From NCBI GenBank assembly GCA_963748625.1, contig CAVVJT010000007.1, positions 608,001 through 672,000 on the forward strand: a stretch of DNA of 64,000 nucleotides. Direction: 5' to 3'. How positions within the stretch are numbered: the stretch's first letter is position 1; every line of letters begins with the position of its first letter. The position numbers and the translations under genes were made by a program. The stretch comes from an uncultured Chloroflexia bacterium (GTDB lineage: Bacteria; Chloroflexota; Limnocylindria; Limnocylindrales; CSP1-4). Under the pieces are notes generated by a model. The model had not been told where the DNA came from and did not search any database. It saw only the letters and a program-made list of their open reading frames with translations. Shown piece after piece: positions 24,519 through 45,943 of this stretch.

Positions 24519-25471
24519 CTACTTGTCGTGGCACTGCTGGCAGGTGCCCCGGTTGTCGATCCGGAGCAGGTTGCTGTCGGTGCCGCGAGCGGTCGACGTG
24601 CCCGGCCACGGAACGGCCTGGCTGTTCGTGCCCATGCTCGCGTTCGAGCCGTGCGAGACGTGGCACTTGACGCACTGCAGGCCGGGGCCGTTCGTGGTCG
24701 CATGCCGGAACGTGAAGATCGCGTCGCCGGAGTTGGTGTGGCCGGCGCCGCCCGGGGCGTTGTACCGCGTGTGGCAGGTGGAGCACCACGCCGTCACGTT
24801 GTTGAGGTACTGCGGGGCGAACGTGTCGCCCGGCTGCCAGTAGTCCAGCGTCGTGTAGAGGTAGTTGGCAGCGACATCGGGGATCGTGACGCCGCGTCGC
24901 CGCACCGCTCTCCTCCGGGATCGGCTTGAGGATCCGGTAGTTCCCGTTGCCGTGCGGATCATGGCAGGAGCCGCACGTCATCGGAGATCGTCGGGCCGGC
25001 GCCGGCGGTGCCGAGGGCCCCGTTGCCCCAGGCCGTGCCGGTTCCGCTGACGGCATGCGCGGACGTCGTGGTCGCCGGCGTGCCGAGAACCCCGACACCG
25101 GTGCCGATCGTCGTCGGTGCGGTGTTGATGACGGCATGGTCGAAGCCACCGCCGCGGAGGCCGCCCTCGACCGTGGTGCCGCGGGTGACCGTGGTCACCT
25201 TGGCCAGCGACGCCGGCACGTACTGCTGGCCGTCCTGCACGTTGGTCGTGGCGCCGGTGCCCGAGGTGCCGTGGCAGGTGTAGCAGAGGGACGTCTGCGA
25301 GGGTTGACGAGTAGATTCGCCGCGCGGGCGGTGTGTGCGCGGTGGCAGCCGGAGCAGCTGTCGGTCGTGGCCGAAGCGCCCGCAACGATGCGGACCGTTG
25401 TCGGCGAACACCGGGGCGGCGAGCAGCAGCCAGACGGCAGCGCCTGCGAACAGGAGCGCCAGTCGCTTCAA
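24519..25471 (-). CDS. Secreted hexaheme cytochrome c, OmcS-like motif order (paralog A; several frameshifts)
   Basis: Signal peptide ..VFA-DNGPH; CSGCH, CYTCH, CGSCHDPHG..YRIL, WCSTCH, CVKCHVSHGS, CQQCH read across frames; paralog of 40132-41394. Confidence 0.8.
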
Positions 25472-25572
25472 GGCTGGTACCTCCAGTGTCTCTCATGGAA
25501 CTCGGACGAATCTGGGCACGTCCCTTGCCCTGACCTCGAGCGTTGCAGGCTTCCACCTCCATCTCCCAGGGC

Positions 25573-26778
25573 CTAGTAGCCCCACACCTGGACACGATTG
25601 TTCTCGCGGTCCGTGACGTAGACCCGCGCGCGGTCATCTGCCGCCACGCCATTGGGGAATTCGAATTGGCCGTCGGCAATCCCTTCGACGCCGAAGTCGG
25701 CGAGGAAGATCGGCCGCAGGTCACCGCCGGAGCCGGTCCGGTAGAGGTGCACGGTGTGGCCGGTCGCGTCGACGACGTACAGGTGCCCGGTGTCGTCGAT
25801 GGCGACACCGCGCGGCAGGCCCAGGGAGCCGGCAGCCGCCCCGCGGTCAGCCCGGACAGCTCCGCGCCCGTCTCCGGGTCGAGGATCACCAGCCGGCCGC
25901 TGTTGCTGCTGGTCACGTAGGCGTGGCCCTCGGCATCGAACGCGATCATGTTGGGGAAGTCGAACTGGCCTTCACGGCCAAGCGTGCGTTTGAGCGACCC
26001 GTCGAGGCCGAACACCTCGATGCGGTGGTAGGGCGCACTGAGGTCGGTGACCCAGAGATCGCCATCGGGCCCGAAGGCGATGCCGAGCGGCTGCCAGTTC
26101 GGGATCGGCTCCGCGGGCAGGAAGCGTGCGCAGGTAGCTCCCGTCGGCGGCGTAGATGTAGATCTCGCCCGAGGAACGGTCCGTCACCCACACCTCGCCC
26201 GTGTCCGGGTGGACCGCGAGGTAGACCGGGGTGTGGCTCTTGCCGTCGGCGGGCGGCTGGAGGACCGCGACCTCGCGCCCGAGCCGGTCGAACAGCCGGG
26301 TCGTCCTGGCGCCACCGGCCTCGGTCACGTAGATGCGGTCGCCGGTCGAGTCCACGGCGACACCCATCGGCTGCTCGGCCCCGTACACGCTGTAGAGGTA
26401 GTGCGGCGGCGCATCCTCGCCGATGGGCGGCACGAGTCGTGTTGATCGGCTGGCGGAACAGCAGATACCAGGCGGTCAGGAATCCCGATCAGGAGCATGA
26501 AAGCGAGGAGCAGGAACAGCAGGATGAGGAGCCGGCGCCTGCGCTTGCGCTCCTCCTCTTCCTCGTCGAGGCCGGGGACGACGGGCGGCACGTCCGGCCC
26601 GGCGGCGGCAGCTCCGGCTGCGACGGCGGCTGCGGCTCCGGCTGCGACGGCGGCGGCTTCCGGGGCGGCGGCGGCGTCGGGCGGCGGCGGCCTCAGCGGT
26701 CGCGCCTTCGGCAGCGACGGGTGCGGAGTCCGGGGCGGCGTCCGGCTGCGGGATCGGATCGGGTTCCATGTCAGCCAT
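25573..26778 (-). CDS. Membrane-anchored NHL-repeat beta-propeller protein (frameshifted)
   Basis: RRRR + TM helix; PMGVAVD, F.FPN.IAFD, PRGVAIDD, FEFPNGVA, NNRVQVW repeats. Confidence 0.75.
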
Positions 26779-27777
26779 TGCTGCTCGATGGATCAGTGCT
26801 CGGGGCGGGGCTCTCCTGCTCGCCCGCATCGGCGACGCCGAGCCGGCTGAGGCCCCAGCTGGCCGCGATGCTCTCGGGATCGAGCTCGAGCGCCTTCCGA
26901 TACCAGCCGACCGCTGCCTCCTGGTCGCCCTCGTTCTCCGCGACCAGCCCCAGGCCGACCGTCGCGTCAGCCGCAGCGGCTCCCTCGGCCAGCGGGAGGA
27001 GGAGCTCCCTGGCAGCGGCGAACTCCTTCGCGACCAGGGCGACCATGCCCCGCGCGTACTCGCGCCTGTTCGGGCTGGCCCAGGGCCTCGTAGGCATCGG
27101 CCATGGCGGCGTACGGGTCCGGCCACTCGGTGGGGATGAACGTCACGGCCTGCCGCTGCGCCTGGACCGCCTGCGCCGGCGACCCCGCACCCATCTGCGC
27201 GAGGCCCAGCTGGTACCACGACGTCGGCGTCGGTGCGATCGATGCGCACCGCGGACTCGAGGGCCGCGACGGCGTCGTCGAACCGCTCCTGCTGCACCGC
27301 GATGACGCCAAGCCCGTAGTAGGCCTGCTCAAGGTCCGCATCGACCTTCGCGAACTCGCCGTCCTTGCGCACCGTCACGATCTGCCGGTAGACCGGCTCC
27401 GCCTTGTCGAGCTCGCCGCCAAGCTGGAGGACCGTCGCCTTGCCGAGGAGCGCCGCGACGTGGTCCGGCTCGATGGCGAGCACCTCGTCGTACTGGCCGA
27501 TCGCGTCCTGGTCCCGGCCGACAGCAACGTAGGTGGCAGCCAGGTTGAGGCGCAGGACGATCTCGTCGGGGTGCTCGCGAACCGCCGCCTCCGCTTCGGC
27601 CAGCTTGCGTTCCGCGAGGGTGGGCCCCGGGTCCCGGTTCTGGTCGAGCACGTAGCCGATCACCAGGAGCGGCGTGACCACCACGATCACGAGGGCCATG
27701 AGCCTGACGAGGCGTCGGAGGGTTGTGCTCGACATGGGGATGGGCGTTGGGCTCTTCGTTGCTCGTTCGTTTTTCAC
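26771..27777 (-). CDS. Membrane-anchored TPR protein (frameshifted)
   Basis: N-terminal TM; AIGQYDEVLAIEPD, AYYGLG, WYRKALELDP TPR motifs; start may be 27735. Confidence 0.75.
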
Positions 27778-27928
27778 GCTTGACCAGGCCAGCACAAGCA
27801 AGGCTGGTGGCCCGCATCCATCATGGCACCGTGGCGGGCCGGTTCCCATAGGCCGGGGGATAGAGAAGGCCGGGCGGAGAGGCCCGTGGTCCTGTATCCA
27901 CCGGCGTCCCGGGCCGGCTTCCCGCACT

Positions 27929-28041
27929 TGCCCCACCTGTGGGGCATTTCGCCACCGTCCCAGCACGGTCTGCGTCGCAAACCCCGACTTTCGCACCCGG
28001 ACCACGCTCACGACCCCCGGATTTGGCCCCCACGTGGGGCG
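27929..28041 (+). repeat. REPIN-like dispersed element, subfamily 1
   Basis: TGCCCCACCTGTGGGGCA ... TGGCCCCCACGTGGGGCG, 95 bp apart. Confidence 0.85.
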
Positions 28042-28094
28042 GACTGCGCGCTGGGAGCCGGGGCGGACCGCGCACCGGGAGCCGAACCGGGAGC

Positions 28095-28941
28095 CTAACC
28101 GGGAGCCCAACCGGACCGCGACCTCTCCCCTGACCGGGCGCGCACCACCGAAGCTGCCGCCGCGTACCCCTCGTAGGCAGGCGCCCGACGACGACGGGTC
28201 AACGCGGTCCCGCGCAGCCACGATCGGTCGCGCGATGCCGGGTCGGCTGCTGCGAGACACCAGCCGGTCGGGGCAGGCGCGTCCAGCTCCGCCACCAGTC
28301 GCGCCAAAGACACCGACATCCCCCGGGAACGCGACCGCGAGCAGGTCCCGCGCGCCCGCGATCCTCGCCGCGACATCGGCCGAGTCGAGCACCACGCACA
28401 GCACCACCACCCGCCGCACCTTCCAGCCGAGCTCCTGCGCCGCCCGCCGCGCCTCCCGCACGTAGAACGAGAGGCTTCGCTGCAGCCCGCCGATATCGGG
28501 CAGGTCGGTCTTGGTCTCCTCGACGATCAGCGTCCCATCGGCCTCCCGGAAGGCAAGCAGGTCGATCCAGCCGCGTGGGCCGCCGTCGCCGATCAGCACC
28601 TCGGTCGCCACCTCCCAGCCGCCCCGGCGCAGGCGTCGCGCAACGTACCCGTTCAGCCAGGCGTGCACGGCGTCGAGCTGCCGCTCCCGATCCAGAAAGT
28701 GCCGCCCATCCAGCTCGAGCGTCGCGCGCAGCCCCAGCGCCGTGAGCAGCGACTCGACGACAAGGAGATCGAGCACCTGCGCCTGCCCGGATTCGAGGCG
28801 CCAGGTCGTCCCCTTCGACGTGCCGGCGCGCTCGGCGAGCTCCGCCTGGGACCAGCCGGCCAGGTGCCGGGCGTCGACGATGGCCTGGGCGAAGGCCGAC
28901 CTGGCGGTTGTCGTCGTGAGCGCGATGCGGGTGATGGGCAT
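28095..28941 (-). CDS. XRE-HTH fused to PD-(D/E)XK-like nuclease domain (X1; frameshift ~28305)
   Basis: WSQAELAERAGTS HTH; EV...GWIDLLAF...IVEETKT; C-terminus in alternate frame aligns with the 53366 paralog. Confidence 0.7.
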
Positions 28942-29062
28942 GGCACCTTGATACCCGGCCGGACTCACGTAGCACTCATTTCGCACGTATCCGCCGCTTA
29001 CGGCGCCGCCCACAGAACCGCCGACAGACGCCGACGCCGCGACCGGGTAGCATCGCCAGCGC

Positions 29063-30002
29063 ATGACGAACCCGAATTCCGACGCCGAACCGAACGCCGA
29101 CGCTGACGCCGACCCCGACGCCGCACACAACCCCGACCCCGACGCTGCCCACAACCCCGGGCCCTCCCTCGAGCGCCAGGCCACCCGTACCCGCATCGTC
29201 GCGGTCCGGGGCGCACGCGTCGAGATCAGGGACGACCGCCTCGCCGGCGAGGAGCCCATGGTCATCCGCGCGGCAGGACCGGGCCAGGCAGCCCATCGAC
29301 GTCGCGGTCACCATGCGCACACCCGGCCACGAGCAGGACCTGGCGGCGGGCTTCCTCTACACCGAGGGCCTGATCACCTCCGCCGACGACATCGATGCCA
29401 TCGACACCGGCGACCCCGCCACCCGCTCGAACCCCGACGACGAGGTCCTCGTCCACCTCACGAGCCCGCTCGACACGTCGCGCATCGCCGAGCGCAACTT
29501 CGTCGCCACCGCGTCGTGCGGCATCTGCGGCAAGGCCTCACTCGATGCGGTCGAAGTCCGCTGCGACCCCCTCCCCGACGGCTTCGCGGTCGCCAGCGAG
29601 ACCATCCTCGCCCTCCCCGACCGCCTCCGTGAGGCCCAGCGCGCATTCGACGCCACCGGCGGCATCCACGCGGCGGGCCTCTTCACGGCGGCCGGCGAGC
29701 TGATCGCGATGCGCGAGGATGTCGGCCGGCACAACGCGCTTGACAAGCTCATCGGCTCGCAGCTCCTGGCTGGGCGGACCCCCCTGCACGACACGATCCT
29801 CCTGGTCAGCGGCCGGGCCGGGTTCGAGCTCGTCCAGAAGGCCGCGGTCGCCGGGATCCCGGTGATGGCCGCGGTGTCGGCGCCGAGCGACCTGGCGGTC
29901 GAACTGGCGGAGCGCCTCGGCCTCACGCTGGTCGGGTTCCTGCGGGGCGACGGCTACAACATCTACGCCCGGGCGGACCGGATCAGGATCGAAGGCGCGT
30001 AG
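29063..30002 (+). CDS. fdhD: Formate dehydrogenase accessory sulfurtransferase (frameshift ~29290)
   Basis: EEP, MRTPG, GFLYTEG, SCGICG, TGGIHAA, EDVGRHNALDK, SAPS. Confidence 0.9.
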
Positions 30003-30091
30003 GCCCGGGGCCGAACCGGCCGCGCCGCGCCGGCCGCGCACCCGAACCGCGCCGGCCGCGCCGACCGCCGCGTCGCCGGTTTCCCGCATGT

Positions 30092-30204
30092 CGCCCCACC
30101 TGTGGGCCAAATCCGGACCGCGCACGCACGGACTGCGTGACAAACCCGGACTTTCGCGCCCGGACCACGCTCAGGACGGTCCGAAACGGCCCCCACGTGG
30201 GGCA
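30092..30204 (+). repeat. REPIN-like dispersed element, subfamily 1
   Basis: Boxes at 30092 and 30187 with conserved core. Confidence 0.85.
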
Positions 30205-30229
30205 GAGCGCGCCCTACGGAACCGGGACC

Positions 30230-32163
30230 TCAGTCGTCCGCGCCAGAACCCGAACCCGCCGCGCCAGAACCCGCCGCGCCAGAACCCGCCGCGCCAGAAC
30301 CAGAACCCGCCGCGCCAGAACCCGCCGCGCCAGAACCCGAACCCGCCGCGCCAGAACCACCAGCCGCCGCCGCAGCACCCGCCGCCGACGTGTGCGGGTT
30401 CAGCGGCCATGTCACACCCTCGGGCGCCTGCTCGCCGGACTCCGAGCCGGACCCCGACGTGGGCTGCCCGAACGCCGGCGACGTGACCGGCAGCACCTGC
30501 TCCTTGTGGCAGCGCGCGCAGTACACCGGCTGGTGGCAGTACGCGCAGGACTGGTTGCCCTGCTCGCGGATCACTGCAGCGTGGTTCGTCGCCATCTCGT
30601 CATGCCCGATCGAGATCGCGCCCGTCGAGTGGCAGTTCACGCAGTAGTCCTGCGCATGGCACTCCACGCACGTCGTCTGCGCCGGGTCGATCGAGGTCGC
30701 CACGTTCGCATGGTTGAACACCCAGAGATCGTCCTGGTGCGTGCTCGGCGGCTGGCCCAACGGCAGAGAGGCAACCGCCGGCCCGATCTGCGGGAACGTG
30801 TGGCACGTGTTGCAGGTGGACGGGATCGATTCCTTGGTCGCAACCCCATCCTCCACCCGGAAGTGCCCGCCGTCGTGGCAGCGGAAGCAGCCCGGGTAGT
30901 CCTGGTGCCCCTTCTGGTTCGGCGTAGGTCGCGGGGGTCACCTGCATCGCCGGCAGCGCCGTCTGCGGATACAGGTCCTTCAGCGCCACGATGGCGCCGC
31001 GGATCTGGGCCAGCTTCGTGGCGTAGATGTCCGGGTAGTTCACCTGGTACCACGCCTCCAGCGCATCGATCTCCGCGAACGCGGCCGCCTCATCGGGGTA
31101 CGCGGCCCACAGGATGCGCATCGACTCGCGCTTGATGAACGGCAGGGAGTCGTCGATCGTCCCCACCTGGAGCATGTAGTCCACGGCGTCGCGCGGGTTC
31201 GTGATGTCGTGGCCGACGCGGTTGTGGCAGTCGTAGCAGCTGACCTCGGTCAGCTCCCCGAGCGCCTTGATCGCCTCGATCTCGGGCTCGACGTTCTCAA
31301 CGTCGACGATGTGGGACTGCGCAGATGTACTCGACCTCCGAGCCATCGGCGCGCGTCGCCACCACGTAGTCGATCGAGGCGCCGTTGAGGCCGGTCCCCG
31401 CGTACTCCATGGGCAGCGCGACGTGGTTGTGCACGCTCCGGTCAACGTCGAACGGATCGCCGCCCGTGGGCCGGACCATCAGCCCGACGAACTCGCGGCT
31501 GTTCTCGGAGTCCTCGGAGAACGACTCCTTGGAGCGCACGCTCGCGAAGGAGCGCTGCTCCAGCGAGTGGCATTCCCGGCACGTGTCCTCCGTGGTGGGG
31601 AGCGCGGTGTGCTCGGGCGGGTGGATCGGCGTGGGGTACGTGCCCAGCACCGTGTCGATCAGCTGGCGCGTGCCGTTCATCTTGGCCTTGACCCAGCCGG
31701 CGATGCCTGGCTCCACGTGGCACTCGCCACAGGTGACGTTCCGGTGCGGGCCCGAGGAATAGGCCTGGAGCTCCGGGGCCATCGTGTGGCAGCGGCCGCA
31801 GAAGTCGGCGGACTCCGTCCAGGAGATGACGGTGACGCCGGCGTAGATCCCCACGAAGCCCACGGCACTGAGCACCAGCAGGAGGGCAAAGAGGCCACCG
31901 CGCGATTTCGGCAGCCGGATGCGGAGCCGCCGGCCGCGCAGGTAGAACGGGCTCCTGCGCTTGGCCGGGGCGCCCGAATTGGACTCCGAAGCCGAAGCCT
32001 CCGCCGATGCCGACTCCGACGTTGCCGATGCCGAAGCCTCCGCCGACTCCGACTCCGGTGCCGAACCTTCGAAACCCGACTCCGAAGCCGAAGCGATCTC
32101 GGGGGCGTCGACGTCGGCCGCATTGGCGGCGGTCTCCTCGACAGGACCCTCGGGATCGCTCAT
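30230..32163 (-). CDS. NapC/NirT-family membrane-anchored multiheme cytochrome c, 10 CxxCH (frameshifts ~31315, ~30920)
   Basis: TM then ES..FCGRCHTM, CGECH..PG..G...AK..G, CRECH, CYDCH, CFRCH, CNTCH, CVECH, CVNCH, CAYCH, CARCH; C-terminal SGAAG repeats. Confidence 0.82.
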
Positions 32164-32174
32164 GCCCTACTGCC

Positions 32175-32780
32175 TCAGTTCTGGATCGCGGCCAGTGCGC
32201 GATCCATGTCGGAGCGACTCATCGCGCCGATCCGGACCTCGCGGACCGTGCCGTCGGCACCGATGAAGAAGTGCGTGGGGATCCCCATCGTGCGGTAGCC
32301 CGCAGCGATGTCCGCGTTCTCGTCCACCAGGATCGGGAACGTCAGCCCCGCGCGGGACGCGTACCCGGCGATCGCGTCGGCCGGCTCGTTCATGAACACG
32401 CCGACCACATCCACCTTGTCCTTGTTCGCGAGATACGCGGCCTCCACGTCCGGCGCCTCATTGCGGCAGTCCGGGCACCACGAGGCGCCGAACGTCAGCC
32501 ACACCGGCCGTCCGGACGACAAGTAGGTCGAGAAATCAACAGGCTCACCGTCGTAGGTCACCCCGCGGAAGGACGGCGGAACCGTCCCGATCTTGGGGGC
32601 ATTCGCGGCGGCGGCGGAACCCAGGTCCACCTCCGTGACCCCATCGGAGGAGGATGCGCCGCCCCCGATGAGGAAGGCGGCCAGCCCGATGACGCCCACG
32701 GTGATCGCGATCACCACGATCGTCTGCAGCCGTCCGGCCGAACGGCCAGCCGGCCGCTCCGCCACATCCGCTGCACTCAT
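32175..32780 (-). CDS. resA: TlpA/ResA-like thiol-disulfide oxidoreductase
   Basis: N-terminal TM; FGASWCPDC, GIPTHFFI; within heme maturation operon. Confidence 0.8.
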   Translation of the reverse strand: MSAADVAERPAGRSAGRLQTIVVIAITVGVIGLAAFLIGGGASSSDGVTEVDLGSAAAANAPKIGTVPPSFRGVTYDGEPVDFSTYLSSGRPVWLTFGASWCPDCRNEAPDVEAAYLANKDKVDVVGVFMNEPADAIAGYASRAGLTFPILVDENADIAAGYRTMGIPTHFFIGADGTVREVRIGAMSRSDMDRALAAIQN

Positions 32781-32810
32781 AGACGAACTCCCTTCACACC
32801 AGACCCGGGC

Positions 32811-33881
32811 TCAGCCCAGGCCGGAGTAGCTGTGGAGCCCGCCGAAGAACAGGTTCCCGAAGTAGGTGAACAGCGTGGCCACGAAGCCCAGGACCAGCAG
32901 CCAGGCGGCGCGATCGCCGCGCCAGCCGCGCATCACGCGGGCGTGGAGGTAGGCGCCGTAGATGAACCAGGTCACCAGCGACGCGGTCTCCTTGGGATCC
33001 CAGCTCCAGTAGGTGCCCCACGCGGTGTCGGCCCAGACGGCGCCCAGGATGATCGTCAGGGTCAGGAACGGGAAGCCGATGACCACGGCGCGGTACCCGA
33101 TCTCGTCGAGCACCTGCGGCTTGGGCAGGCCCCAGCGGCCGCCATCGGAGTCGGAGAGCGAGGCGCCAACCCCGGACCAGCGGGCGATCCCGCCGATGAG
33201 ACCACCGACGACCGCGCCAAGCAGGAGGCCCGCGAGGAGCCCGGTGACCTGGCCCATGATCAGGCGCCGACGATCGCGCCCGGGACCGCGCCGATCAGCA
33301 TGCCCGCGGCCACCATCACCCACCGGCCCTGGAGCAGGAACAGCAGCGAGGCGGCGAACGCGATGGCGAAGGAGCCGTAGGCAACGATCGCGACCGCGAC
33401 GTGGACGGTGAGGAGCAGGTTGTTCTGGAGGGCGGGGACGAGCGGCTCGACGGTCGGCCGGAATGGTTGCCGCGTACAGCAGCATCGCCAGCGCGACCGG
33501 CAGGGCGATCAGGGCGAGGATGCGCTGGTGGTACTTGTGCTCGAACCAGGAGTACGTGACCAGGATGCCGAAGGCGAACGCCATCGAGAACTCGTACATG
33601 TTCGCGAACGGCCCGTGGCCGGTCACAACGGCCCGGAACACCATGCTGGCGCCCAGGAGGGCGGTGGCCAGCCACACGAAGATGGACGCGTACCGTCCTA
33701 GCTCGCCGGTGCGCGGGCCGGACATGAAGCCCACGGTGCCGCCGGCGCCTGAGCCAGGACCGCCCGCCGTCTGCATCCGCGCAGCGCGGACGCCGGAGAC
33801 GGCGTAGAAGATGTAGAGGACGAGCGCGAACGCCGTCATCAGGATTGACGCGATGAACGCGTACTCGGACATCTTTGCCAT
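32811..33881 (-). CDS. ccsA: Cytochrome c biogenesis protein CcsA/ResC (frameshifts ~33465, ~33262)
   Basis: [16 protein letters not shown]...[25 protein letters not shown]. Confidence 0.9.
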
Positions 33882-33894
33882 GGTGGGGACTCCC

Positions 33895-35348: not shown

Positions 35349-36130
35349 TCAGATCCCGAACGGCGTGCCGAAGGTCGACAGCCGCCCGAGGGTGTTGGTG
35401 AACATCAGGACGCCGAGGATCACGAGCAGGGCGCCCGTGACCAGGTTGACGGCGTGGTTGTGGCGGCCGAACCAGCTCATCCGGCGGGCGACCCAGGAGG
35501 CGCCCATGGCGACCGCGATGAACGGGATGGCGAGGCCGGCGGCGTACGCGACCAGGAGCAGGGTGCCCTGGGCGAACGTCGCCGTGGCGGTGGCGATGCC
35601 GAGGATCCCGCCGAGGATGGGCCCGATGCACGGGCTCCAGCCGGCGGCGAACAGCAGGCCGAAGACGAAGGAACGGGGGTAGGCCGGAGTGCCGGGGCGG
35701 CTGGCGACGGCGCTCGATAGCGCCGCTGCCCGTGCCCGGGCCGCCGGCCATCACGAGGCCGCCGCCCATGGAGGGCATCACGCGGGTGTCGCGCCAGAGC
35801 GCGCGGACGTTGATGACGCCCGCGACCTGGAGGCCCATGAAGATCATCAGCGCGCCGATGATCATGTTCAGGTAGCGCCGGTCCACGAAGGCGCCGATCA
35901 CGCCCAGCAGGGCGTAGAAGGCGATGAACACGAGCGAGAAGCCCGCGCTGAACGCGAGGCCGTGGAAGAAGGCCGGGCGACGACCGGTGGTGCCCTCACC
36001 GGTCGCGCCCAGCATGTAGGAGACGTAGGCAGGAACGAGCGGCAGGCAGCAGGGGGATGCGAAGGACGCCAGCCCGCGCCAGGAAGGCGAGGCCGATGCC
36101 CAGCACGCTGCCGAGCTCGAGAGCGGTCAT
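35349..36130 (-). CDS. ccdA: Cytochrome c biogenesis protein CcdA (frameshifted)
   Basis: SFASPCCLPLVPAY, GFSLVF, GWSPCIGPILG, GLAIPF. Confidence 0.85.
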
Positions 36131-36133
36131 GGC

Positions 36134-37543: not shown

Positions 37544-37687
37544 GTTGATTGCCCTCAGCTATGTGCCGCGAGGGGCCGCGGCTTGACACCTGCTGAGATT
37601 GTCCGGGCACCAGGCGCTGCTCGCCCATGCGTAAGGCGGCACATTTCCGCGGGACCGTGACGGGCCAGAGGGTGGAGAAACGGACGC

Positions 37688-37716
37688 GGCCCCTGTATCC
37701 GCTCGATACAGGGGCC
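37688..37716. terminator. Perfect 12-bp hairpin (terminator or operator)
   Basis: GGCCCCTGTATC-cgctc-GATACAGGGGCC just downstream of the octaheme gene. Confidence 0.5.
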
Positions 37717-37743
37717 TCGAGAACCACGGTGCCGCGCGGTCGC

Positions 37744-40083
37744 CTAGTAGCGGAACGCCTGGTGGTCCTTGCCGTGGCACATCATCGTGCAGGTGCCCAG
37801 CGCCGTTGGCGTCTTCACGATGAACTGGAACCCCAGGCCGGGCGAGTCCACGACGTTGGGCGCGAAGTTGACGAGCCGCGGGTTGTCCGCCTGCCCGCCG
37901 ATGGCCAGGCTGCTGCCATGGATCCGGAAGTGGCACTCGGCGCACAGGGCGTTGCCCTGGCCGGCGCCGGCGACGTCGATGTCCCGGCCCCCGGACCCGC
38001 TGCCCCGGATGCCCGACATGTGCAGTCCGTGGTACCGGAAGTTGGAGTCCGCGCGGTTGGTGCGGCTCGTGTCGGTCATGGGCGGCTCTGTGTGGCAGAG
38101 GTAGCACTCGGCGAAGTTGCCGACCGCGTAGAGCGTGCCCGATGCCGATAGGACCCGGTCCTCGTACTTGCGGAGCAGGATCCCGCGGTTGGCCGATGCG
38201 TGGTTGTCGATCGACGCGTCCGCCGTGACCGCTGCGACCGTCGATGAACCGTGGCAGTTCTGGCAGCGGATCGTGGAGGTCGTCGTGAACGTCCACAACT
38301 TGTACGGCGATGTCCCGGCCAGGTTCGTGTTCATCTTCACGGTCTGGTTGGTGCCCGCAGCCTCGACCGGGTGGAACGAGGCGTTGGACGGGTTGAACTC
38401 AAGTGCCTTGTCGAGCGCCCAGCGGCTCGGGTGCGCCGGGTCCTGGGCGCGAAGGTCCGTGAACGCGGAGTGGCACTTGAAGCAGAGCTCGTACTCCTTG
38501 GCCGAGGTGAGGTTCCAGGTGTACGCCGGTGCCGTGTTCGCGGCCCCGTTGACGACCGAGACGCCGGAGGCACCCTTGAGAGCGCCGCTTGCGGACCACG
38601 CCGTGGCCTTGCCGTCAGGGCCCGCCGGCCCCATCACGGGCAGGGTCGAGTCAGCCAGGTGTGGCTGGTGGCAGTCTGAGCACTCGCTGTGCCGGTTCTC
38701 CACGCCCTCGAACTCGTTGGTGCGGTCGGACACGTGGTCCGATGCGACGGTTGCCGGGTGGCGGAAGAAGCTCGACGTCGCCGGGTCGTTGGCCGGGAAC
38801 GCCGGGTTGGTGAACTCGGCCTTCGTATTGGCATCCGCACCCGACCCGTCGTGACAGCTGAAGCACATCGTGGAGATCGGCGAGAACGTCGCCTTCTGCA
38901 GCATCGCGCCTTCGGCGGTGTGGGTCCGATGGCAGGACGCGCAGGCATCGCTCTCGAGGGAGGCCTCCGCAAGGTGCGGTGAGGAGAACGATCCGGCGAG
39001 GGGCCCGAGGTCCAGCGGGGTGAGCTGTTCGGCGGCCGCGGCGTGCCGGGTTGCCATCAGCTGCTCCGGCTTGGCGAGCGGGAAGGCGGGCTCCTCCGAC
39101 GGGGCGCCCTCGACCTCCTCGGCAGAACGCTGCCCGGGGGTGATGACCTGCTCCGGCTGCGGCTCCATCGTCAGCTGCGCGTCGATGCGATCGGTGACGG
39201 CCGCCTCGCCCAGGCCAAGCCGGAGGTTGAACTCCGCCAGCCACGGTGCCGCATCAGTGGCGCGCACACGGAACTCGATGTCCGTGTAGGAGTCGGCGGG
39301 GAGCTGGAGGTGCGGGGCAGGGTTCTCACCCGCGCTGATGAGTCCCTTGACCGGGTTGCCTGGGGTTTCCCCCACCGTCGCCCGCAGGTCCGCAGGCAGG
39401 ATGTCAGTTGTCCGGACCTCATACTCGCGACCCTTGTCCGATGCTGCGTAGAAGGGCACATCGGGCACCGGATTGACCTCGGGTACCGCGTCCCAGGCGG
39501 GGGCATCGGCGGCAGCGCTCCACAGGAGCTTGGGAGTGACCTGCTCGTCCGTCGCGCCGTCGTTCACCACCCGGAACCGGACCCGGTACACGACCGAGAA
39601 GGTCATGCCGGCCAGCGGCTCGTCCTCAGCGCCAGCGACAGCGAGGGCGCCGAGGTCGGTCTCGGTGTCAACCCACACGTGCTCGATGCGGACGCCCTTC
39701 TCGGGCGCCGGCGTCGCGGACGGCTCGGGGAGCGGCGTGGAGGACGGATCGGGGGTCGGGTCCGTCGACGGGCCAGGGGTCGGCTCCGGTCCGACAACCG
39801 GACTCGCGCTCGGGTCGGGCAGGGCCGAGGGGTCGGGCACAGCCGAGGGGTCGGGCACGGGCGTCGTGCCGGGCTGCTCGGAGGCAGCCGGTGCGGGCGT
39901 GGCGCCCGGGTCGAAGAACGGCTGTGCGGCGGGGTCAACAGGCGTGGCAGTGGGCTGCGGTTCAGGCGTCGGATCCAGGGCCGACGCCACCGGGATCGCC
40001 GGGGAGACCGTCGCCAGCAGGCCAGCCAGAACCAGCCACGCTCCGAGGAGCGGGCCGGCACGGCGGGTGATTGCTGACTTCAT
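37744..40083 (-). CDS. Secreted octaheme cytochrome c with Pro-rich linker and non-heme N-terminal domain
   Basis: Signal peptide; PDPS repeats; CASCH, CFSCH, CSDCH, CFKCH, CQNCH, CYLCH, CAECH, CTMMCH. Confidence 0.85.
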   Translation of the reverse strand: MKSAITRRAGPLLGAWLVLAGLLATVSPAIPVASALDPTPEPQPTATPVDPAAQPFFDPGATPAPAASEQPGTTPVPDPSAVPDPSALPDPSASPVVGPEPTPGPSTDPTPDPSSTPLPEPSATPAPEKGVRIEHVWVDTETDLGALAVAGAEDEPLAGMTFSVVYRVRFRVVNDGATDEQVTPKLLWSAAADAPAWDAVPEVNPVPDVPFYAASDKGREYEVRTTDILPADLRATVGETPGNPVKGLISAGENPAPHLQLPADSYTDIEFRVRATDAAPWLAEFNLRLGLGEAAVTDRIDAQLTMEPQPEQVITPGQRSAEEVEGAPSEEPAFPLAKPEQLMATRHAAAAEQLTPLDLGPLAGSFSSPHLAEASLESDACASCHRTHTAEGAMLQKATFSPISTMCFSCHDGSGADANTKAEFTNPAFPANDPATSSFFRHPATVASDHVSDRTNEFEGVENRHSECSDCHQPHLADSTLPVMGPAGPDGKATAWSASGALKGASGVSVVNGAANTAPAYTWNLTSAKEYELCFKCHSAFTDLRAQDPAHPSRWALDKALEFNPSNASFHPVEAAGTNQTVKMNTNLAGTSPYKLWTFTTTSTIRCQNCHGSSTVAAVTADASIDNHASANRGILLRKYEDRVLSASGTLYAVGNFAECYLCHTEPPMTDTSRTNRADSNFRYHGLHMSGIRGSGSGGRDIDVAGAGQGNALCAECHFRIHGSSLAIGGQADNPRLVNFAPNVVDSPGLGFQFIVKTPTALGTCTMMCHGKDHQAFRY

Positions 40084-40131
40084 GAGGCGGGACGTCCTCT
40101 CGGTTGTGATTGGTGGGGTTGCGTGGATGAG

Positions 40132-41394
40132 TTACGGGTTCCTGAAGTTCCCGGTGTACGGGATGGTGTTCGTCGGGTCGTGGCAGGCCTGGCAGGTGCC
40201 ACGGTTGTCGATCTTGAGCAGGCGGCTGTTGAGGTACGTGGTGGTCGGGCCGGTGCCGACGGTCGTCGGTGCGGACCCGTCCGGGTAGTCCATCGCCCCC
40301 GAGTTGCCGATCATCGTGGCGTTGCTGCCGTGCGAGACGTGGCACTGGGTGCAGGCGACGGTCTGAGTGAGGTGACGGTACGTGTAGATGGAGTCGCCAC
40401 TCGGTGTCGTGATGTCGGACGACGTCGCGTGGTACCGGCTATGGCACGTGGAGCACCAGGCCTCGATCTCGACGTTGAAGGTGACGAGATTGTCCGGGGC
40501 GCCGACCACGTACATCGGGATGTCGCCCGGGACGCCGGTGCCAGCCTCGTCCTCGAAGCCGTTCCAGGTCGGTACGCCGTCCCAGGGCAGCCACTTGCGC
40601 CAGTAATCGCCGGCCGTGGGGCCGAGCGCGGCGGTGACCACGTCCTGGAGGGTACGACCGTTCTGGACGGTGTAGTTGCGCGTGCCTGCGGCGCCGCTCC
40701 CGCTCGGGAGCTCCGCGTCATTGACCGTCGCCCCCGGCTCGCCGACGCGCACGAAGTCAGCGCCGTCAGCCTCGGGGCGGGGGTTCAGGATCCGGTACTG
40801 GCCGTTGCCATGCGGGTTGTGGCACGTGCCGCAGCTGATCGTCGCGGTGGGTCCGGCGCCGCTGTCGATCGCGCCGTTGCCCCAGACAACATCGCGGGCC
40901 ACCACGCCACCGGCACCATCGACATCGAGGTGCGCGGACGTGACGGGGGCGCCATCGACGAGGGCAGGGACCAGCATGGAGAAGCTGGTGCGGAACTCGG
41001 TGGGGGCGAGGAACGGGTAGGAGATGCGCGAGGGGTTGGCGGAGTCGATGCGTGCATCCACAAAGCCGCCGGCCCGCAGAGCACCGGCGATCACTCCGGT
41101 GTCGCGTTCGCCGGTCGCGAGGCCGTATTGGATGCCGCTCTGGACATCAGTCGTGGCGCCTGTGCTTGACGCGCCGTGGCAGGTGAAGCAGAGCTCCTCC
41201 TCCGTCGCGGTCTTGAGCAGTTTCGCCCCTTGGGCGGTGTGCGTCCGATGGCAGCCGGCACAGCTGTCCGCAGTCAGCGACGAGAGGCCGTTGTTGCTGC
41301 CGGCAACGTGAGGGCCGCCGTCCGCAAGGACGGGGAACGCGGCGAGGAACAGCCACAGCGTGCCGGCTGCCATCAGCAGCGTCAGCTTCTTCAC
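40132..41394 (-). CDS. Secreted hexaheme cytochrome c, OmcS-like motif order (paralog B, intact)
   Basis: AAGGAGGTG RBS; signal; DGGPH, CAGCHRTH, CFTCH, CGTCHNPHG..YRIL, WCSTCH, YRH, CTQCHVSHGS, CQACH. Confidence 0.88.
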   Translation of the reverse strand: MKKLTLLMAAGTLWLFLAAFPVLADGGPHVAGSNNGLSSLTADSCAGCHRTHTAQGAKLLKTATEEELCFTCHGASSTGATTDVQSGIQYGLATGERDTGVIAGALRAGGFVDARIDSANPSRISYPFLAPTEFRTSFSMLVPALVDGAPVTSAHLDVDGAGGVVARDVVWGNGAIDSGAGPTATISCGTCHNPHGNGQYRILNPRPEADGADFVRVGEPGATVNDAELPSGSGAAGTRNYTVQNGRTLQDVVTAALGPTAGDYWRKWLPWDGVPTWNGFEDEAGTGVPGDIPMYVVGAPDNLVTFNVEIEAWCSTCHSRYHATSSDITTPSGDSIYTYRHLTQTVACTQCHVSHGSNATMIGNSGAMDYPDGSAPTTVGTGPTTTYLNSRLLKIDNRGTCQACHDPTNTIPYTGNFRNP

Positions 41395-41456
41395 TGTCCT
41401 CACCTCCTTTCCTTCGGGTTGGACGCAGGGGTTGGCGTGTGGTGTTGAGTCGGGGT

Positions 41457-41490
41457 GAGCCCGGTGGCGCCGGAGGCGACCACCGGGCTC
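41457..41490. terminator. Intergenic stem-loop between cytochrome paralogs C and B
   Basis: GAGCCCGGTGG...CCACCGGGCTC 11-bp stem. Confidence 0.5.
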
Positions 41491-41505
41491 TTCAGTATCG
41501 GGGTG

Positions 41506-43766
41506 TTACGGGGTCGCCGGCATGATGCCGACGGACCCGCCCGTGCCAGCCAGCGATGATGTCGACGTCGGCGCCGGAAGAGTCGTGGAGGTACCGTGAA
41601 GTCGTGGCTCAAGGATGCGACCTGACGATGACTGGCGGTTGGCGGTGCCAGTCGACTCTGGTGATACCAGCGATGTTGACCTGGTCGCCGACCGCGAGGC
41701 CGTGAGCACGCCGACGTGAAGTACGTCGGTGGTCGGCAGTCCACGCCGAGGCGAGTGCGACCTTCTGGAACGGAGCACGACCGGGAACTGGTCGCCAGCG
41801 ACCGTCGTGCCCGTGGGCTCGTGGCACTGCTGGCAGGTTCCGCGGTTGTCGATCTTCAGCAGCCGGCTGTTGCCGACCGCATCTGGTCCCATCCGGGAAG
41901 GTGAAGTTGGCGCTGTACTCGCCGGTCATCTGCGGCATTGGAGCCGTGCGAGACGTGGCAGGTGAGGCAGCCGCGACCGGAGCTCGCACCGCGAGTGCGG
42001 TGCTGGTACGAGAAGATCGCGTCGCCGGGGCGCGGGTTGCTGTAAGCCGGGCCGGTGGCGGTGCCGTCGGTCGGATCCTCGGTCGGCTCGGACCAGGCGT
42101 AGTAGCGGCTGTGGCACGAGGTGCACCACGCTGCCATCTGCTCGCCGAAGCCGCCGGTGAACTGCAGGCGGTGCCGCCGCCGGGGATGGCCGTTCGGTGC
42201 GTCGTAGGTTCGACGCGCCGCTGGGCCGTGTTCCACGGCACGCGGTAGTGGAAGTAGTCGCCGTCGGTCGGGTCGAACGCGGCCGCCTCGCAGGCGAGGA
42301 GGACGTCGTTCTGGCGACGGCTGCGCACCGCCGATGGCGTCGGTTGCGGAGGACACGCCGGCGAGCGTGAAGGTCGTCGTCGTTGCGGTGGCGACCTTGA
42401 CGGTGGTGTTCGAGCTGCACGGCGCTCGTGGAGCCACCAACGGTCATCCCGGTGACGTTGACCGTGTCACCGACCGCGAAACCGTGGGCGGCGGCGGTCG
42501 TGTAGACAAAGGTCGTTCCGACTGTAGCTGACCACGACGGCCCAGGACTTGGGTCCTGGATGACGGTGTAGTTGCGGGCATCGCGCAGCCGGCGAGGGCC
42601 GCAGCGTCGGTGACCCGAACGCCACCGTTGCGGATCGACCTTGCCACCGAGACGGTGGTGCCATCGGTGACGCCGGTAATCGTGAAGGTCAGGTCGGACG
42701 GAACGGTGGCAACCGCGCCCGTGACGTTGGCCGCACCCAGCGCGTTGCCGCGTGACGGTGACGTTGTCGCCGATCAGCAGGCCGTGGCTGGCCACAGTCG
42801 TGTAGACCTTGTTGGAGTAGCTGAGCGAGGGCGACGCCCTGCGGCAGCACGGTGCCGCCGGTGCCGGTGCCGGCAGCCAGCTTGAAGGAGACGACCGGAG
42901 TGACCCGCCGGCAGGCTCGTCTTGGCGGTGAACTCGGTCGTGGGAGACGATCGTGTCGATCCACAGCGTCCGGTTGGCGGCCGTGGTGGAGTTACCGGCT
43001 ACCACGATCTGGTTGTTGACCGCCAGATCGTGGTTGGCGCCGGTGGTGAACAGCGCTGCGGCGTTGGCGGTAGCGGTGCCATAACCGATCACGCTGGTGA
43101 GCGCGGTCGTCGGGTACTGGCCGCCACCCCACGTGGCGTCAATGCCAGTAGCGCCGGGGATGGTGTTCAGGATGCGGTACTGCCCGTTCCCGTGCGGGTT
43201 GTGGCAGGAGCCGCAGGAGACGTCGGCAGCCGGGCCGGCACCGGAGCCGTTGGCCCCGTTGCCCCAGGCGATGCCGGGCTGCGTCAGGCCGGCAAGGCCG
43301 GGCATGTGCGCAGAGGTGACCGCCTCGAGACGGTGCGAGACGGTGACCTTGCCGTAGCGCGAGCTGTTGCCCGTCGCGCTGGTCTGGAGTGAGAACGGAA
43401 GGGATCGCCGATGCGGGCCTCTTCGAAGCCGCCGCCGCGGAGGGCGCCCAGGTCGGCCGTGCCGCTGCGCGGTTCTTCAGCGATCGTCGGAGGGCTCGTA
43501 CTGGACGCCCATGACGACGTCCGTGGTTGCGCCCGTCAGGCCGCACCGTGGCACGCGAGGCACAGGTCCTCTTCCGTGGTCTGGTTCAGCAGCAAGGGGC
43601 CCTTGGCGGTATGGACCCGGTGGCAGCCGGCGCAACTATCGGCCGTCAGCGACGTGACGCCGTTGTTGATCGACGACGTGTGGGGTCCACCATCCGCGAA
43701 CGCAGGAACCGCGGCAAGGAACAGCCAAAGTGTGCCGGCTGCGATCAGCAGCGTCAGCTTCTTCAC
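41506..43766 (-). CDS. Hexaheme OmcS-like cytochrome with inserted beta-rich repeats (paralog C; many frameshifts)
   Basis: Signal nearly identical to paralog B; CAGCH, CLACH, CGSCH, WCTSCH, CLTCH, CQQCH; four T...HGL..GD.V...G repeats. Confidence 0.75.
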
Positions 43767-43879
43767 TGTCCAAGCCTCCTTTCTGTAACTAACTACGTGC
43801 GTGTTGATTGACGTGGGCCGCCAATGGGGCGGCGGCTAGTTGGTCGGAAACACCTCCTGCTACTCCCTCTCATCTACCT

Positions 43880-44946
43880 CTAGTAGCTCCACAACTGGAC
43901 GCGGTCGTTGCCGGTGTCGGCCACATAGACCCTCCCTCTCGCATCGACAGCGACCCCGTTGGGGTATTGGAACGTCCCGTTGTCGGCGCCCCTGGCCCCC
44001 GAAGGAGCCAAGGAATTTGAGCTCCACGGGACCCGACGTCGAGATCTCGTAGACGAACACCCCGTGACCGGTGGAGTCGCCGACGTAGACGCGGTTCTGG
44101 CCGTCGATGGCGACGCCACGCGGGAGGCCGAGGTTGCCCTCACCCGACCCGCGGCCGATGCTCGCCACAACGCTGTTGTCGGCCCCGAACACCAGCAGGC
44201 GGCCGTTGCTGCTGTCCGCGACGACGACGTTGCCGTTGGCATCGACGGCGACGCCGTTCGGAAAGTTGAGGCCCTCGGTCTCGCCCATCGTGCGCAGGAC
44301 GGCGCCGCTGCGGTCGAAGACGACCACGCGCTGCGCCGGGCCGCCGACGTCGGTCACGTACAGGTTGCCGGTCTTGTCGAACGCGAGGGCCAGCGGCTGC
44401 CAGCCCTAGAATCGTCCTCGCCAGGGTCGAATGTCCGGGCGTAGGTGCCGTTGGCGTCGTACACGTGGATGGCGCCCGCCGGACGGTCTGTCACGTAGAC
44501 CTCGCCAGCCAGCGGATCGACGGCTAGGTACACCGGCACGTGGTCCACATCCGGGTTGGGCGCTGCCATGACGGCGAGCTCGTTGCCGCTGGCGTCGAAC
44601 ACGCGCGCGATCCGGTCACCGCCTGTCTCGCCGACGTAGATGCGGCTGCCGTCCGCCGTGACCGCGACGCCGACGGGGTGCATTCGCGCCGTACATGGAC
44701 GTCACGTAGCCAGGCATGACGACCTGGCCGGGGAGTGTCGGCAGCGGGCACGGGCTGGCGGAAAAGCAGGTACCAGATGGCGAGTCCGAGCAGCATGGCG
44801 AGGGCTGCCAGCAGGACGAGCAGGAGCACGACCTTGCGGCGGCGGGACTTGCCTTCGCCGGTGCCATCGAGGGGCTGGCTGTCGGTGCCCTCGGGGGCCT
44901 CAGCCCCTTCGGGGATGGCGGTGGGGACGGCGGGGGACGCAGTCAT
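43880..44946 (-). CDS. Membrane-anchored NHL-repeat protein (frameshifted)
   Basis: RRK + TM; PVGVAV, LNFPNGVAVD, LPRGVAID, FQYPNGVAVD..NDRVQLW; paralog of 25573-26778. Confidence 0.8.
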
Positions 44947-45943
44947 CAGTTGGATCCTTCGCTCGGGGACGCGGCCGGGGAGGCCGAGGGCTTGACCGGG
45001 ACGGTGACCCGGCTCAGGCCGAACTTGGCGGTGTCGTCCTCGGGATCGATGGCGAGCGCCTTGCGGTACCAGTCGGCGGCGGCGGCGGTGTCGCCGGTCG
45101 TCTCGGCGATCAGGCCCAGGCCGACGAACGCCTCGATGGCATGCTCGCCGCCGGTGATTGCCTTGAGCCGCTGCTCCGCGGTGGGGATGTCGCCGCTGTT
45201 GAACGCGGCCATGGCGCCTGCCCACTCGGCGAGCTCGGCATCTCCGGTCGCCTTGTAGGCGGTCTCCGAGGAGCGCGTACGGCTCAGCCCAGCCGGCCGG
45301 CACCAGTGCGATCGCCTTACGCAGGATCTCGACGGCCTCGGGGGCGCGATCCGTCGCAAGGTATGCCTTCGCAATCGCATACATCGCATCAGCGTTGGTG
45401 CGCTCGATCTCGAGGGCCCGCCCAAGCTGGTCGATAGCCTCGTCGTTGTTTCCCTGGGCCAGGGCGATCTCACCGCGGCCGAAGTAGGCGGCCGCAAGCG
45501 TGCGGTCCACGTTCGCCATCTCACCGCCTGCAGCGAACTCGACCACGGCGTCGTAGTCCTTGATCGCGTCGTCGTACCGCTCCATCGCCTGGTAGACGCG
45601 GGCGCGGCCCAAGGCTCGCGAGCTCGACCTCCTGGTCGGCATCGATCAGCAGCGTGTACTGGACGATGGCGTCCTCGTAGCGGCCCTTGGCGGCGTACGT
45701 GTCGGCGAGCAGGCCGCGGGCGGCGATGTTCTCAGGCTCTGCGCGGACCTTCTCCTCCATCGCGACGAGCTGCTGGTCAACGATCTCAGCAGTCGGCATG
45801 CGGAAGCGGTCGATGACGTAGAACGCCACGAAGGCGATGAGGACAACAACAAAGAGGAGCGCGATCCGCTTGATCCAGCGGTTCAGCTGCTCCTCAGGCA
45901 TGTTGGTCAGGGACGTGACCCGGGACATGAATGGCACCTTCAC
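44946..45943 (-). CDS. Membrane-anchored TPR protein (frameshifted)
   Basis: N-terminal TM; AAYFGRG, RTNADA, WYRKALAIDP; paralog of 26771-27777. Confidence 0.78.

Follow-up and report, generated by a model that had tools for sequence, protein, structure and literature searches.

The subject of this study is a cluster of multiheme cytochrome genes in an uncultured Chloroflexia bacterium (GenBank assembly GCA_963748625.1, contig CAVVJT010000007.1). The window, meaning the whole stretch of DNA that was analysed, is 64,000 nt long and covers positions 608,001-672,000 of the forward strand; coordinates are those of the window unless a contig is named. The cluster, here called the island, encodes three hexaheme cytochromes (A, B and C), an octaheme, a decaheme and a set of genes for System II cytochrome maturation. 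The G+C content of the window is ~70% and raw lists of open reading frames (ORFs) are therefore noisy. Genes were picked using the G+C content of third codon positions (GC3) and homology.

A six-frame scan identified 42 CxxCH, CxxxCH or CxxxxCH motifs in the whole window. Of these, 36/42 fall within 24542-43634 on the minus strand, and the remaining 6 are elsewhere or on the opposite strand. The 36 motifs belong to five genes on one strand: 6 to hexaheme A (heme-motif span 24542-25356), 10 to the decaheme (30520-31800), 8 to the octaheme (37791-38943), 6 to hexaheme B (40194-41262) and 6 to hexaheme C (41835-43634). A first-pass annotation of the same DNA had arrived at this count and grouping, but had overlooked that most of the genes are interrupted by frame breaks. 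Breaks were counted using three-frame translations (hexahemes A and C) and tblastn against the intact orthologs of locus L001, a short-read metagenome-assembled genome (MAG) of Candidatus Limnocylindrales that carries every gene of the cluster intact. The genes of the island are as follows.

45006-46058, minus strand: TPR protein with a membrane anchor, opening module 1; compared with the intact 482-residue L001 ortholog it has three frame breaks
43883-44946, minus strand: NHL-repeat beta-propeller directly upstream of the hexahemes; three frame breaks
41758-43766 (3' end approximate), minus strand: hexaheme C, the long paralog; ~9-10 frame breaks, with six CxxCH over two frames
40132-41403, minus strand: hexaheme B, hexaheme cytochrome with a predicted OmcS fold; intact 423-residue ORF, probable start at 41394 giving the 420-residue protein P0001
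37744-40083, minus strand: octaheme cytochrome of 779 residues, intact; 7 CxxCH plus CTMMCH (CxxxCH), Paired_CXXCH_1
36456-37727, minus strand: second ORF with TPR, located between octaheme and ccdA; C-terminal TPR_11 match (E=4.8e-4) that misses the curated cut-off
35352-36075, minus strand: CcdA (DsbD_TM), thiol-reductant transporter of System II; one frame break
33904-35337, minus strand: ResB/CcsB, System II heme handling, intact; Pfam ResB E=1.1e-68
32814-34105, minus strand: CcsA/ResC (Cytochrom_C_asm), System II synthase subunit; at least two frame breaks
32175-32780, minus strand: ResA-like thioredoxin/redoxin, anchored in the membrane and intact, carrying a WCPDC motif; Pfam AhpC-TSA, Redoxin and Thioredoxin
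30389-32163, minus strand: decaheme with one N-terminal transmembrane helix and a NapC/NirT-type domain; two frame breaks, ten CxxCH in three frames
27075-27735, minus strand: TPR gene of the second module; one frame break
25576-26433, minus strand: NHL beta-propeller of the second module
24519-25471, minus strand: hexaheme A, the short paralog of ~315 residues, without most of the insert between hemes 3 and 4; four frame breaks

Pfam domains in the island comprise a NapC/NirT N-terminal domain, ResB, redoxin, TPR and NHL, together with Paired_CXXCH_1/Cytochrom_c3_2 on the hexahemes and the octaheme. DsbD_TM and Cytochrom_C_asm were matched on the L001 orthologs and mapped to the window. A System II set of CcdA, ResB/CcsB, CcsA/ResC and a ResA-like thioredoxin is encoded together, with ccdA and ccsA frame-broken in the assembly. 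A second, intact CcsA (Cytochrom_C_asm, 339-residue frame) was found elsewhere in the host genome (contig C10, 933208-933786, plus strand; locus L079), so the set in the island is an extra, dedicated copy. Pfam on the window ORFs and the L001 orthologs thus agrees with the maturation genes and the TPR and NHL partners named in the first pass. There is no beta-barrel gene in the island, as had also been noted for a porin; all genes in 46058-30389 and 27735-24519 fall to other families by Pfam and tblastn. Neither a secretion-channel gene nor a prolyl-isomerase gene was found in the island using Pfam on the window ORFs and L001 orthologs.

The TPR protein of module 1 was mapped by tblastn with L001:5780-7228, which matches in frames -3, -1, -2 and -3. 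Pfam TPR matches fall at 45521-45943 and on the L001 ortholog; matches of TPR_CcmH_CycH and NrfG-like type are weak. The NHL gene was matched in frames -2, -1, -3 and -1. Pfam NHL was found at 43860-44357 and 44354-44683, and the 391-residue L001 ortholog matches NHL at E=7.8e-28. All family motifs of hexaheme C are visible in the three-frame translation, its N-terminal 116 residues are 56% identical to hexaheme B, and its intact ortholog is the 654-residue protein of L001:8309-10273. It has a ~300-residue insert between hemes 3 and 4. Within the insert (~42250-43100) are three copies of a short beta module of the type (V/F)YTT..HG...GD.V.V, and the insert of the L001 ortholog has weak Pfam matches to the small beta-barrel domains End_beta_barrel and E1_FCCH. 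The insert may be a surface decoration of the cytochrome.

The octaheme consists of a signal peptide, a ~100-residue linker rich in Pro, Thr, Ser and Ala, a non-heme domain and a C-terminal 8-heme domain. It has a weak Pfam match to MtrC/MtrF domain II/IV and no specific match among PDB sequences. The middle of the second TPR ORF looks out of frame, with one break, and contigs of relatives have indels at 37225-37545. CcdA was matched with L001:15761-16534 in frames -2 then -3 at 66-75% identity, and ResB in a single frame with its L001 ortholog. The decaheme matches Pfam Cytochrom_NNT (E=1.7e-13), has NrfH/TorC-like NCBIfam matches below cut-offs, and has an intact 652-residue, 10-heme ortholog at L001:19269-21227; its transmembrane helix was read from the sequence.

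The second module is smaller. Its TPR gene was matched with the L001 TPR protein at 33-40% identity (frames -2 then -3), and its NHL gene with the L001 NHL protein at 33% identity over residues 106-391, with Pfam NHL at 25972-26433. Hexaheme A keeps all 12 candidate ligand His and resembles short members of the family (~320-345 residues) such as P0204 and P0224. The occurrence of TPR, NHL and hexaheme A as a second module indicates that the TPR-NHL-hexaheme triad is itself a repeated unit.

Relatives of hexaheme B were found in large numbers: of 8000 candidates scored, 1107 reached E<=1e-3. When representatives at 50% identity were searched exhaustively, 1018 passed E<=1e-3, of which 564 also passed E<=1e-10 and 205 passed E<=1e-30. 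The few source names attached to them are 'cytochrome c3 family protein' and 'predicted CXXCH cytochrome family protein'. Exactly six CxxCH motifs occur in 107/147 of the representative hits listed, unfiltered. The sequence AD(G/N/A)G(P/V/I)H follows the signal peptide in 101/107 of the six-heme proteins, and 3 of the other 6 are N-terminally truncated. The segment between hemes 3 and 4 ranges from near zero, in short forms of ~300-345 residues like copy A, to several hundred residues. Short forms are frequent in Anaerolineae, as found in a homolog search with the short member P0258. Two to three divergent hexahemes, 39-56% identical, occur per locus. The hexahemes had been described as secreted, which agrees with the N-terminal sequence as read directly (charged n-region, hydrophobic core, VLA followed by D) rather than with the output of a signal-peptide predictor.

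Two alignments were made, A1 of 40 close members and A2 of 78 diverse members. The rows of A2 were picked for six CxxCH and the N-terminal motif, and these columns, including H29, are invariant by construction. Both alignments have six heme motifs and six further conserved His. H155, H195 and H355 are present in 78/78 rows of A2, H52 and H341 in 77/78, and H29 in 40/40 rows of A1. No further His is conserved in >=50% of rows. The first-pass annotation had made its comparison with Geobacter OmcS depend on conserved distal His, and all six are conserved. The twelve axial ligands, six from CxxCH and six distal, are thus predicted to be all His. In OmcS, too, all twelve ligands are His: eleven are supplied within the subunit and one, for heme 5, by the neighbouring subunit (PMC6584659).

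The order of hexaheme motifs given in the first pass was found in hexaheme B and is kept family-wide. Motif types common to the family and OmcS occur in the same order: CxxCHxxH, ..LL.., CxxCH; CxxCH-(D)PHG..YR; WCxxCH; CxxCHRAH-S/CxxCHxxH-S. The sequence searches that had been proposed gave a divided answer. Using phmmer with a single sequence against all PDB sequences at E<=10, OmcS was not matched and the only hit was a weak one to chain A of the Mtr complex. Profiles did match OmcS. It was the top match of the A1 profile (6ef8_A, E=0.013), in three segments that are in the same order in both proteins, and was matched by the A2 profile (E=2.5e-6, 30 bits) in one stretch over hemes 3-4. Other matches of the A2 profile were 6r2q_A (1.4e-6), OmcE (7tfs_A, 1e-4) and 9yuq_N (3e-3). 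The Mtr match arises from repeated paired CxxCH, and therefore profile E-values alone are no proof of a specific relationship to OmcS. NCBIfam produced only sub-threshold matches to generic multiheme families, none of them OmcS-specific. A catalytic role as nitrite, hydroxylamine or tetrathionate reductase was considered and rejected, as there is no CxxCK or other catalytic-heme signature and no family above cut-off.

An AlphaFold monomer model of hexaheme B was built from the 78 rows of A2 without templates; an earlier run with the 40 homologs of A1 had a predicted local distance difference test score (pLDDT) of 50.7 and was unusable. The weights of AlphaFold2 are older than the 2019 release of the OmcS structure. 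Compared with OmcS, the model has an OmcS-like fold over the whole chain at ~22% identity over aligned residues, while the other multiheme cytochromes of the compared set, a built-in control, all scored <2. The model thus predicts the OmcS fold for hexaheme B. When it was reported, this fold was unique among solved structures (PMC6584659). Several results weigh against a close tie to OmcS: the single-sequence search did not find it, its profile E-value is no better than that of 6r2q_A, whose match consists of generic paired-CxxCH repeats, part of its profile match is non-colinear motif similarity, and Foldseek against PDB gave no match at E<=0.001. Taking the model and the motif order together with these results, we regard the hexahemes as very probably homologous to OmcS.

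The host genome totals 4.63 Mb and consists of 10 contigs; its completeness is 98.3% and its contamination 7.74%. LpxC, LptD and BamA-type Omp85 were all missing from it, which is in keeping with the apparently monoderm host of the first pass. The sole Omp85 hit in the host genome is a TpsB of the ShlB/FhaC type (536 residues, POTRA_2 + ShlB; contig C7, 1332572-1332919; locus L078, 1372-2982, minus strand). It is located in the last ~35 kb of C7, and this tail and the first ~20 kb of the contig have a G+C content of 63-64%, compared with 70-73% elsewhere. The ends of C7 are either a foreign island or a misjoin (chimeric join). A monoderm envelope is the better reading for the host. Chloroflexota are generally held to be monoderm (Sutcliffe 2011, as cited in PMC7399161).

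The distribution of the cluster was examined by scanning one genome per species, which gave 225 stretches that encode relatives. The best 77 loci were examined for gene content with the window proteins as queries at E<=1e-6; many of these loci end at contig borders. Nearly all are Chloroflexota MAGs (Candidatus Limnocylindrales, 'Chloroflexia', Chloroflexi), with L018 assigned to Actinomycetota and L073 to Solirubrobacterales. NHL was found beside the hexaheme in 71/77 loci. The octaheme was also found in 71/77 and in 54/77 at >=200 bits; the weak ones may be cross-matches of heme motifs. ResB was present in 53/77 loci, a NapC-like N-terminus in 51/77, redoxin in 51/77 and TPR in 47/77. The gene order is constant: TPR, NHL, hexaheme(s), octaheme, CcdA/ResB/CcsA, redoxin and NapC-type decaheme. 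The nearest relatives are Chloroflexota of Candidatus Limnocylindrales, a lineage as far from Geobacter as had been proposed. Among sampled genomes of the phylum the family occurs at E<=1e-20 in 17/401, host included, and in 7/23 of the host's family, so the cluster is an accessory trait. Look-alike clusters in the ESM Atlas belong to Actinomycetota, Bacillota (score 0.94) and Thermodesulfobacteriota and are leads only. No Bacillota names occur among the named relatives listed, including those from the search with P0258, which are Chloroflexota/Anaerolineae instead.

Mobile DNA is present nearby. An IS30-type transposase (HTH_38 + rve) is encoded at 49814-50992 on the plus strand, ~4 kb beyond the island. 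This gene and the patchy distribution of the cluster among relatives hint at mobility of the cluster.

We think it likely that the island is the host's copy of a conserved accessory cluster of Chloroflexota, in Limnocylindria and beyond, and that it encodes an extracytoplasmic multiheme chain across a single-membrane envelope. The NapC/NirT-type membrane decaheme, a putative quinol dehydrogenase, would exchange electrons with the quinone pool. The quinol entry point of the first pass is plausible in view of the Cytochrom_NNT match, with quinol oxidation itself an inference. Electrons would pass from the decaheme to the secreted octaheme and the OmcS-fold hexahemes, and outward, in an order of carriers that is only presumed. 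The Pro/Thr/Ser/Ala-rich linker of the octaheme would suit spanning or tethering in the wall. CcdA, the ResA-like redoxin, ResB and CcsA would load the hemes. The membrane TPR protein, with its CycH/NrfG-like matches, and the NHL propeller probably act in folding, anchoring or assembly. On the other side, the patchy distribution counts against this reading, and electron-transfer function and direction in this uncultured host are predictions from sequence.

For the way in which the hexahemes would work within such a chain, two possibilities were weighed. The first, which we consider quite possible but short of an even chance, is that they do not polymerise but act as soluble or wall-associated carriers linking the membrane decaheme to the octaheme or to a different terminal protein, and share only ancestry and fold with OmcS. 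Most OmcS-like paralogs are without a known filament (PMC12977616). The divergent paralogs of each locus, with their variable inserts between hemes 3 and 4, would suit specialised carriers, and the lack of a secretion-channel or prolyl-isomerase gene in the island points the same way. However, the conserved mature N-terminus and the His of CxxCHxxH are hard, though possible, to explain by internal ligation alone, and the NHL and TPR genes paired with the hexahemes point to assembly or anchoring and away from free diffusion.

The second possibility, which we hold tentatively, is that the hexahemes polymerise head-to-tail like OmcS, one His ligating a heme of the neighbour, to give a conductive wire through or beyond the wall. 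The OmcS-like fold over the whole chain and the 6+6 conserved His, as in OmcS (PMC6584659), are in its favour. So are the beta-propeller gene adjoining the subunit gene, as in OmcE clusters (10.1101/2025.10.22.684050), and the example of Thermincola CwcA, which was modelled on OmcS, is insoluble and was proposed to polymerise (PMC7911101). The first-pass annotation had placed an N-terminal His first in the motif order. By motif position it is H52, the His of CxxCHxxH after heme 1, and not the N-terminal His, that corresponds to OmcS residue 16, a His reportedly identified as the bridging ligand by Wang et al. 2019. H52 is thus the likely counterpart of the bridging His of OmcS, judged by motif position. 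Confidence in the monomer model is lowest in residues 21-60, the mature N-terminus and heme-1 region (pLDDT 54-65), which would fit an arm docking onto the next subunit; this is weak evidence, as low pLDDT has many possible causes. The twelve conserved His are as compatible with a monomer as with a filament. A complex model of two mature copies with four of the 12 hemes scored 0.37, 0.00 and 0.20 against a mark of 0.42, in runs made without controls, and counts for neither possibility. A broader proposal is rather unlikely: that Limnocylindria together with other monoderm Chloroflexota and Actinomycetota assemble OmcS-homologous, ligation-linked wires without an outer-membrane channel, with TPR and NHL as the sole platform, the long paralog adding beta modules and the octaheme serving as base or tip.

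Outward electron flow, to minerals, humics or partners, is favoured because of the analogy with OmcS and Thermincola. Inward flow is unlikely; electrons drawn from a partner cell or from extracellular Fe(II), Mn(II) or reduced humics would then enter the quinone pool or reach a terminal oxidase. In principle a multiheme conduit can run in reverse, proteins of the NapC/NirT type can function in both directions, and heme potentials are not fixed by sequence; a related MAG (L011) is labelled 'Mn-Chloroflexi', which is a label only. Against inward flow, neither the island nor the flanks scanned showed a gene of the Cyc2, MtoA or multicopper-oxidase type, and the closest studied analogues, OmcS and the Thermincola pathway, transfer electrons outward. 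Apart from the question of direction, the label of L011 is a lead to carriers of the cluster in manganese-related enrichments.

The frame breaks number ~25 in the island: 4 in hexaheme A, ~9-10 in C, 2 in the decaheme, 3 in TPR, 3 in NHL, 1 in CcdA, >=2 in CcsA and 1 in the second TPR ORF. Uninterrupted ORFs are limited to hexaheme B, the octaheme, ResB and the redoxin. Every family-invariant motif is kept in the broken copies according to three-frame translations. Contigs of relatives were obtained as short pieces from four public sequencing runs; they are mostly 90-95% identical to the window and not of the same strain. No public run contained >0.10 of the sampled words of the window. Compared with the window, a single nucleotide is missing from these contigs at 30923 and at 33455, and two nucleotides are missing at 33263. 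The sites coincide with frame switches, 30923 with the -3/-1 switch of the decaheme and 33455 and 33263 with switches in CcsA. Because the conserved motifs survive and the relatives' contigs carry indels at three break sites, we read the breaks as probable indel errors of a long-read assembly, with good though not full confidence. Here too there are points on the other side. The contigs come from other strains, and the break sites of hexahemes A and C are not informatively covered. The breaks are uneven, with none in ~5 kb (hexaheme B, octaheme, ResB) and ~25 in the rest, and random assembly error is not the full explanation of this spread. Long high-GC3 ORFs cover 0.29-0.5 of the affected stretches against a contig median of 0.72, and the breaks inspected are single-base indels away from homopolymers.

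These same points would fit a decaying pseudogene cluster in which the breaks are real mutations. With a second, intact ccsA on C10, maturation of the remaining cytochromes could continue, and the family has been gained and lost among relatives. We felt that decay was nevertheless improbable. All invariant residues and motifs are kept in the broken genes, no in-frame stops or large deletions were seen within family-matching segments, and GC3 is high in each segment. Ten frame changes in 2 kb without other damage are unusual for pseudogenes, three middle genes are perfectly intact, and a 10-contig assembly with megabase contigs and this level of contamination is typical of a long-read MAG. Least probable of all is that the OmcS resemblance reflects generic multiheme convergence (paired CxxCH and a coil-rich chain around a heme stack) and not homology, which would account for the equal profile match to 6r2q_A, the match to OmcE, the failed single-sequence search and the low identity, but not for the shared heme number, size and order of distinctive motifs, nor for a model built without templates.

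Between the two cytochrome modules are genes of other kinds. An HTH_31/XRE-type DNA-binding domain (E=3.8e-9) is encoded at 28270-28899 on the minus strand; the region after it is nuclease-like by eye, and both lie within a long composite ORF at 26476-29265. An intact gene of the FdhD/NarQ family (29313-30002, plus strand, E=5.6e-68) separates the modules. A functional link of the cytochrome island to the FdhD gene was considered and rejected, as the gene is on the opposite strand and no formate dehydrogenase is present among the flanking ORFs scanned. Nitrate reductase was likewise not found among these ORFs.

The hexahemes share with OmcS (GSU2504, PDB 6EF8/6NEF) and its paralogs OmcT, GSU2501/OscC and OmcJ a secreted hexaheme protein of ~400 residues and tandem paralogs. 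The six CxxCH, the six further His and the order of distinctive motifs are also common to both, as reportedly is a beta-propeller-type gene nearby, in the osc cluster. Papers that cite Shen et al. 2025 (PMC13194489, PMC12977616) place Geobacter omcS in an 'omcS companion' operon, for which roles in folding, secretion and morphology have been proposed. Unlike OmcS, the family is at ~22% identity beyond the reach of single-sequence search, belongs to Chloroflexota whose host genome is without outer-membrane markers, and has a conserved ADGGPH mature N-terminus and a variable heme 3-4 insert with up to ~300 residues of beta modules. No channel-like or prolyl-isomerase companion gene was seen in its island, unlike what is reported for the OmcS neighbourhood. 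OmcS forms filaments; for the Chloroflexota hexahemes filaments are a hypothesis.

The closest paradigm is the Gram-positive Thermincola pathway (ImdcA, PdcA, CwcA, OcwA; PMC7911101). It resembles the island in a monoderm envelope, a membrane decaheme for entry, an OmcS-like hexaheme, a larger multiheme protein that is possibly terminal, and no porin. CwcA is a hexaheme whose homology model used OmcS, 18% identical, as template; polymers of it were proposed to run through the peptidoglycan between ImdcA and OcwA (PMC7911101). The likeness is one of architecture. Unlike in Thermincola, which belongs to another phylum (Bacillota), the Chloroflexota cluster is one operon with its own System II and TPR/NHL genes, and it has an octaheme with a Pro/Thr linker in place of the surface nonaheme OcwA. 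The OmcE clusters of Desulfuromonadia (7TFS) are similar in having multiheme cytochromes, beta-propellers and nearby resB/ccsB, and OmcE (7tfs_A) was a weak profile match. Besides the subunit and a large beta-barrel, these clusters always contain a pair of multiheme cytochromes and a pair of beta-propeller lipoproteins (10.1101/2025.10.22.684050 = PMC13712944). A heme of OmcE is ligated by a His of the adjacent subunit, but OmcE is a tetraheme of a different fold and the large outer-membrane beta-barrel is absent from the island. MtrCAB (6R2Q) and Geobacter Pcc differ in having a porin, which the island lacks, and the host has no outer-membrane biogenesis markers bar the one TpsB at an atypical contig end.

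An OmcS-like hexaheme in a monoderm has precedents in Thermincola CwcA (PMC7911101) and a Coriobacteriales homolog. The latter is the one OmcS homolog that Arbour et al. (PMC7399161) identified beyond Geobacter, at 28% identity, and the same paper describes cytochrome-rich Anaerolineales without porin-cytochrome complexes. Portela et al. (PMC10954620) list OmcS homologs from diderms only. Nothing on OmcS-like hexahemes or on this cluster in Chloroflexota/Limnocylindria was found in the literature covered; supplements and Shen et al. 2025 lie beyond that coverage and may list distant homologs. What is new is an OmcS-homologous, porin-free cytochrome chain in monoderm Chloroflexota. It is known in kind, and its degree of novelty depends partly on Shen et al. 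2025. That article (Cell Chem Biol 32:239) reportedly calls the OmcS assembly machinery 'widespread and ancient' in its title and may already include distant phyla.

Cytochrome nanowires have been solved for a few diderm bacteria and archaea, and crossing of a monoderm wall is known only from the Thermincola models. The hexaheme family has >1000 relatives (E<=1e-3) in each large protein search, with only generic names where the sources give any, and a conserved operon in an abundant uncultured class of soil and freshwater. Intact hexaheme B is a compact subunit with which the causes of polymerisation in OmcS-fold proteins could be tested. If the broader proposal of channel-free wires in monoderms held, OmcS-type wires would be an ancient, envelope-independent invention; they would be widespread in aerobic soils and freshwater and not confined to metal-reducing Desulfuromonadia. 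If the family conducts electrons across the wall, Limnocylindria would couple carbon turnover to the redox cycling of iron, manganese or humics.

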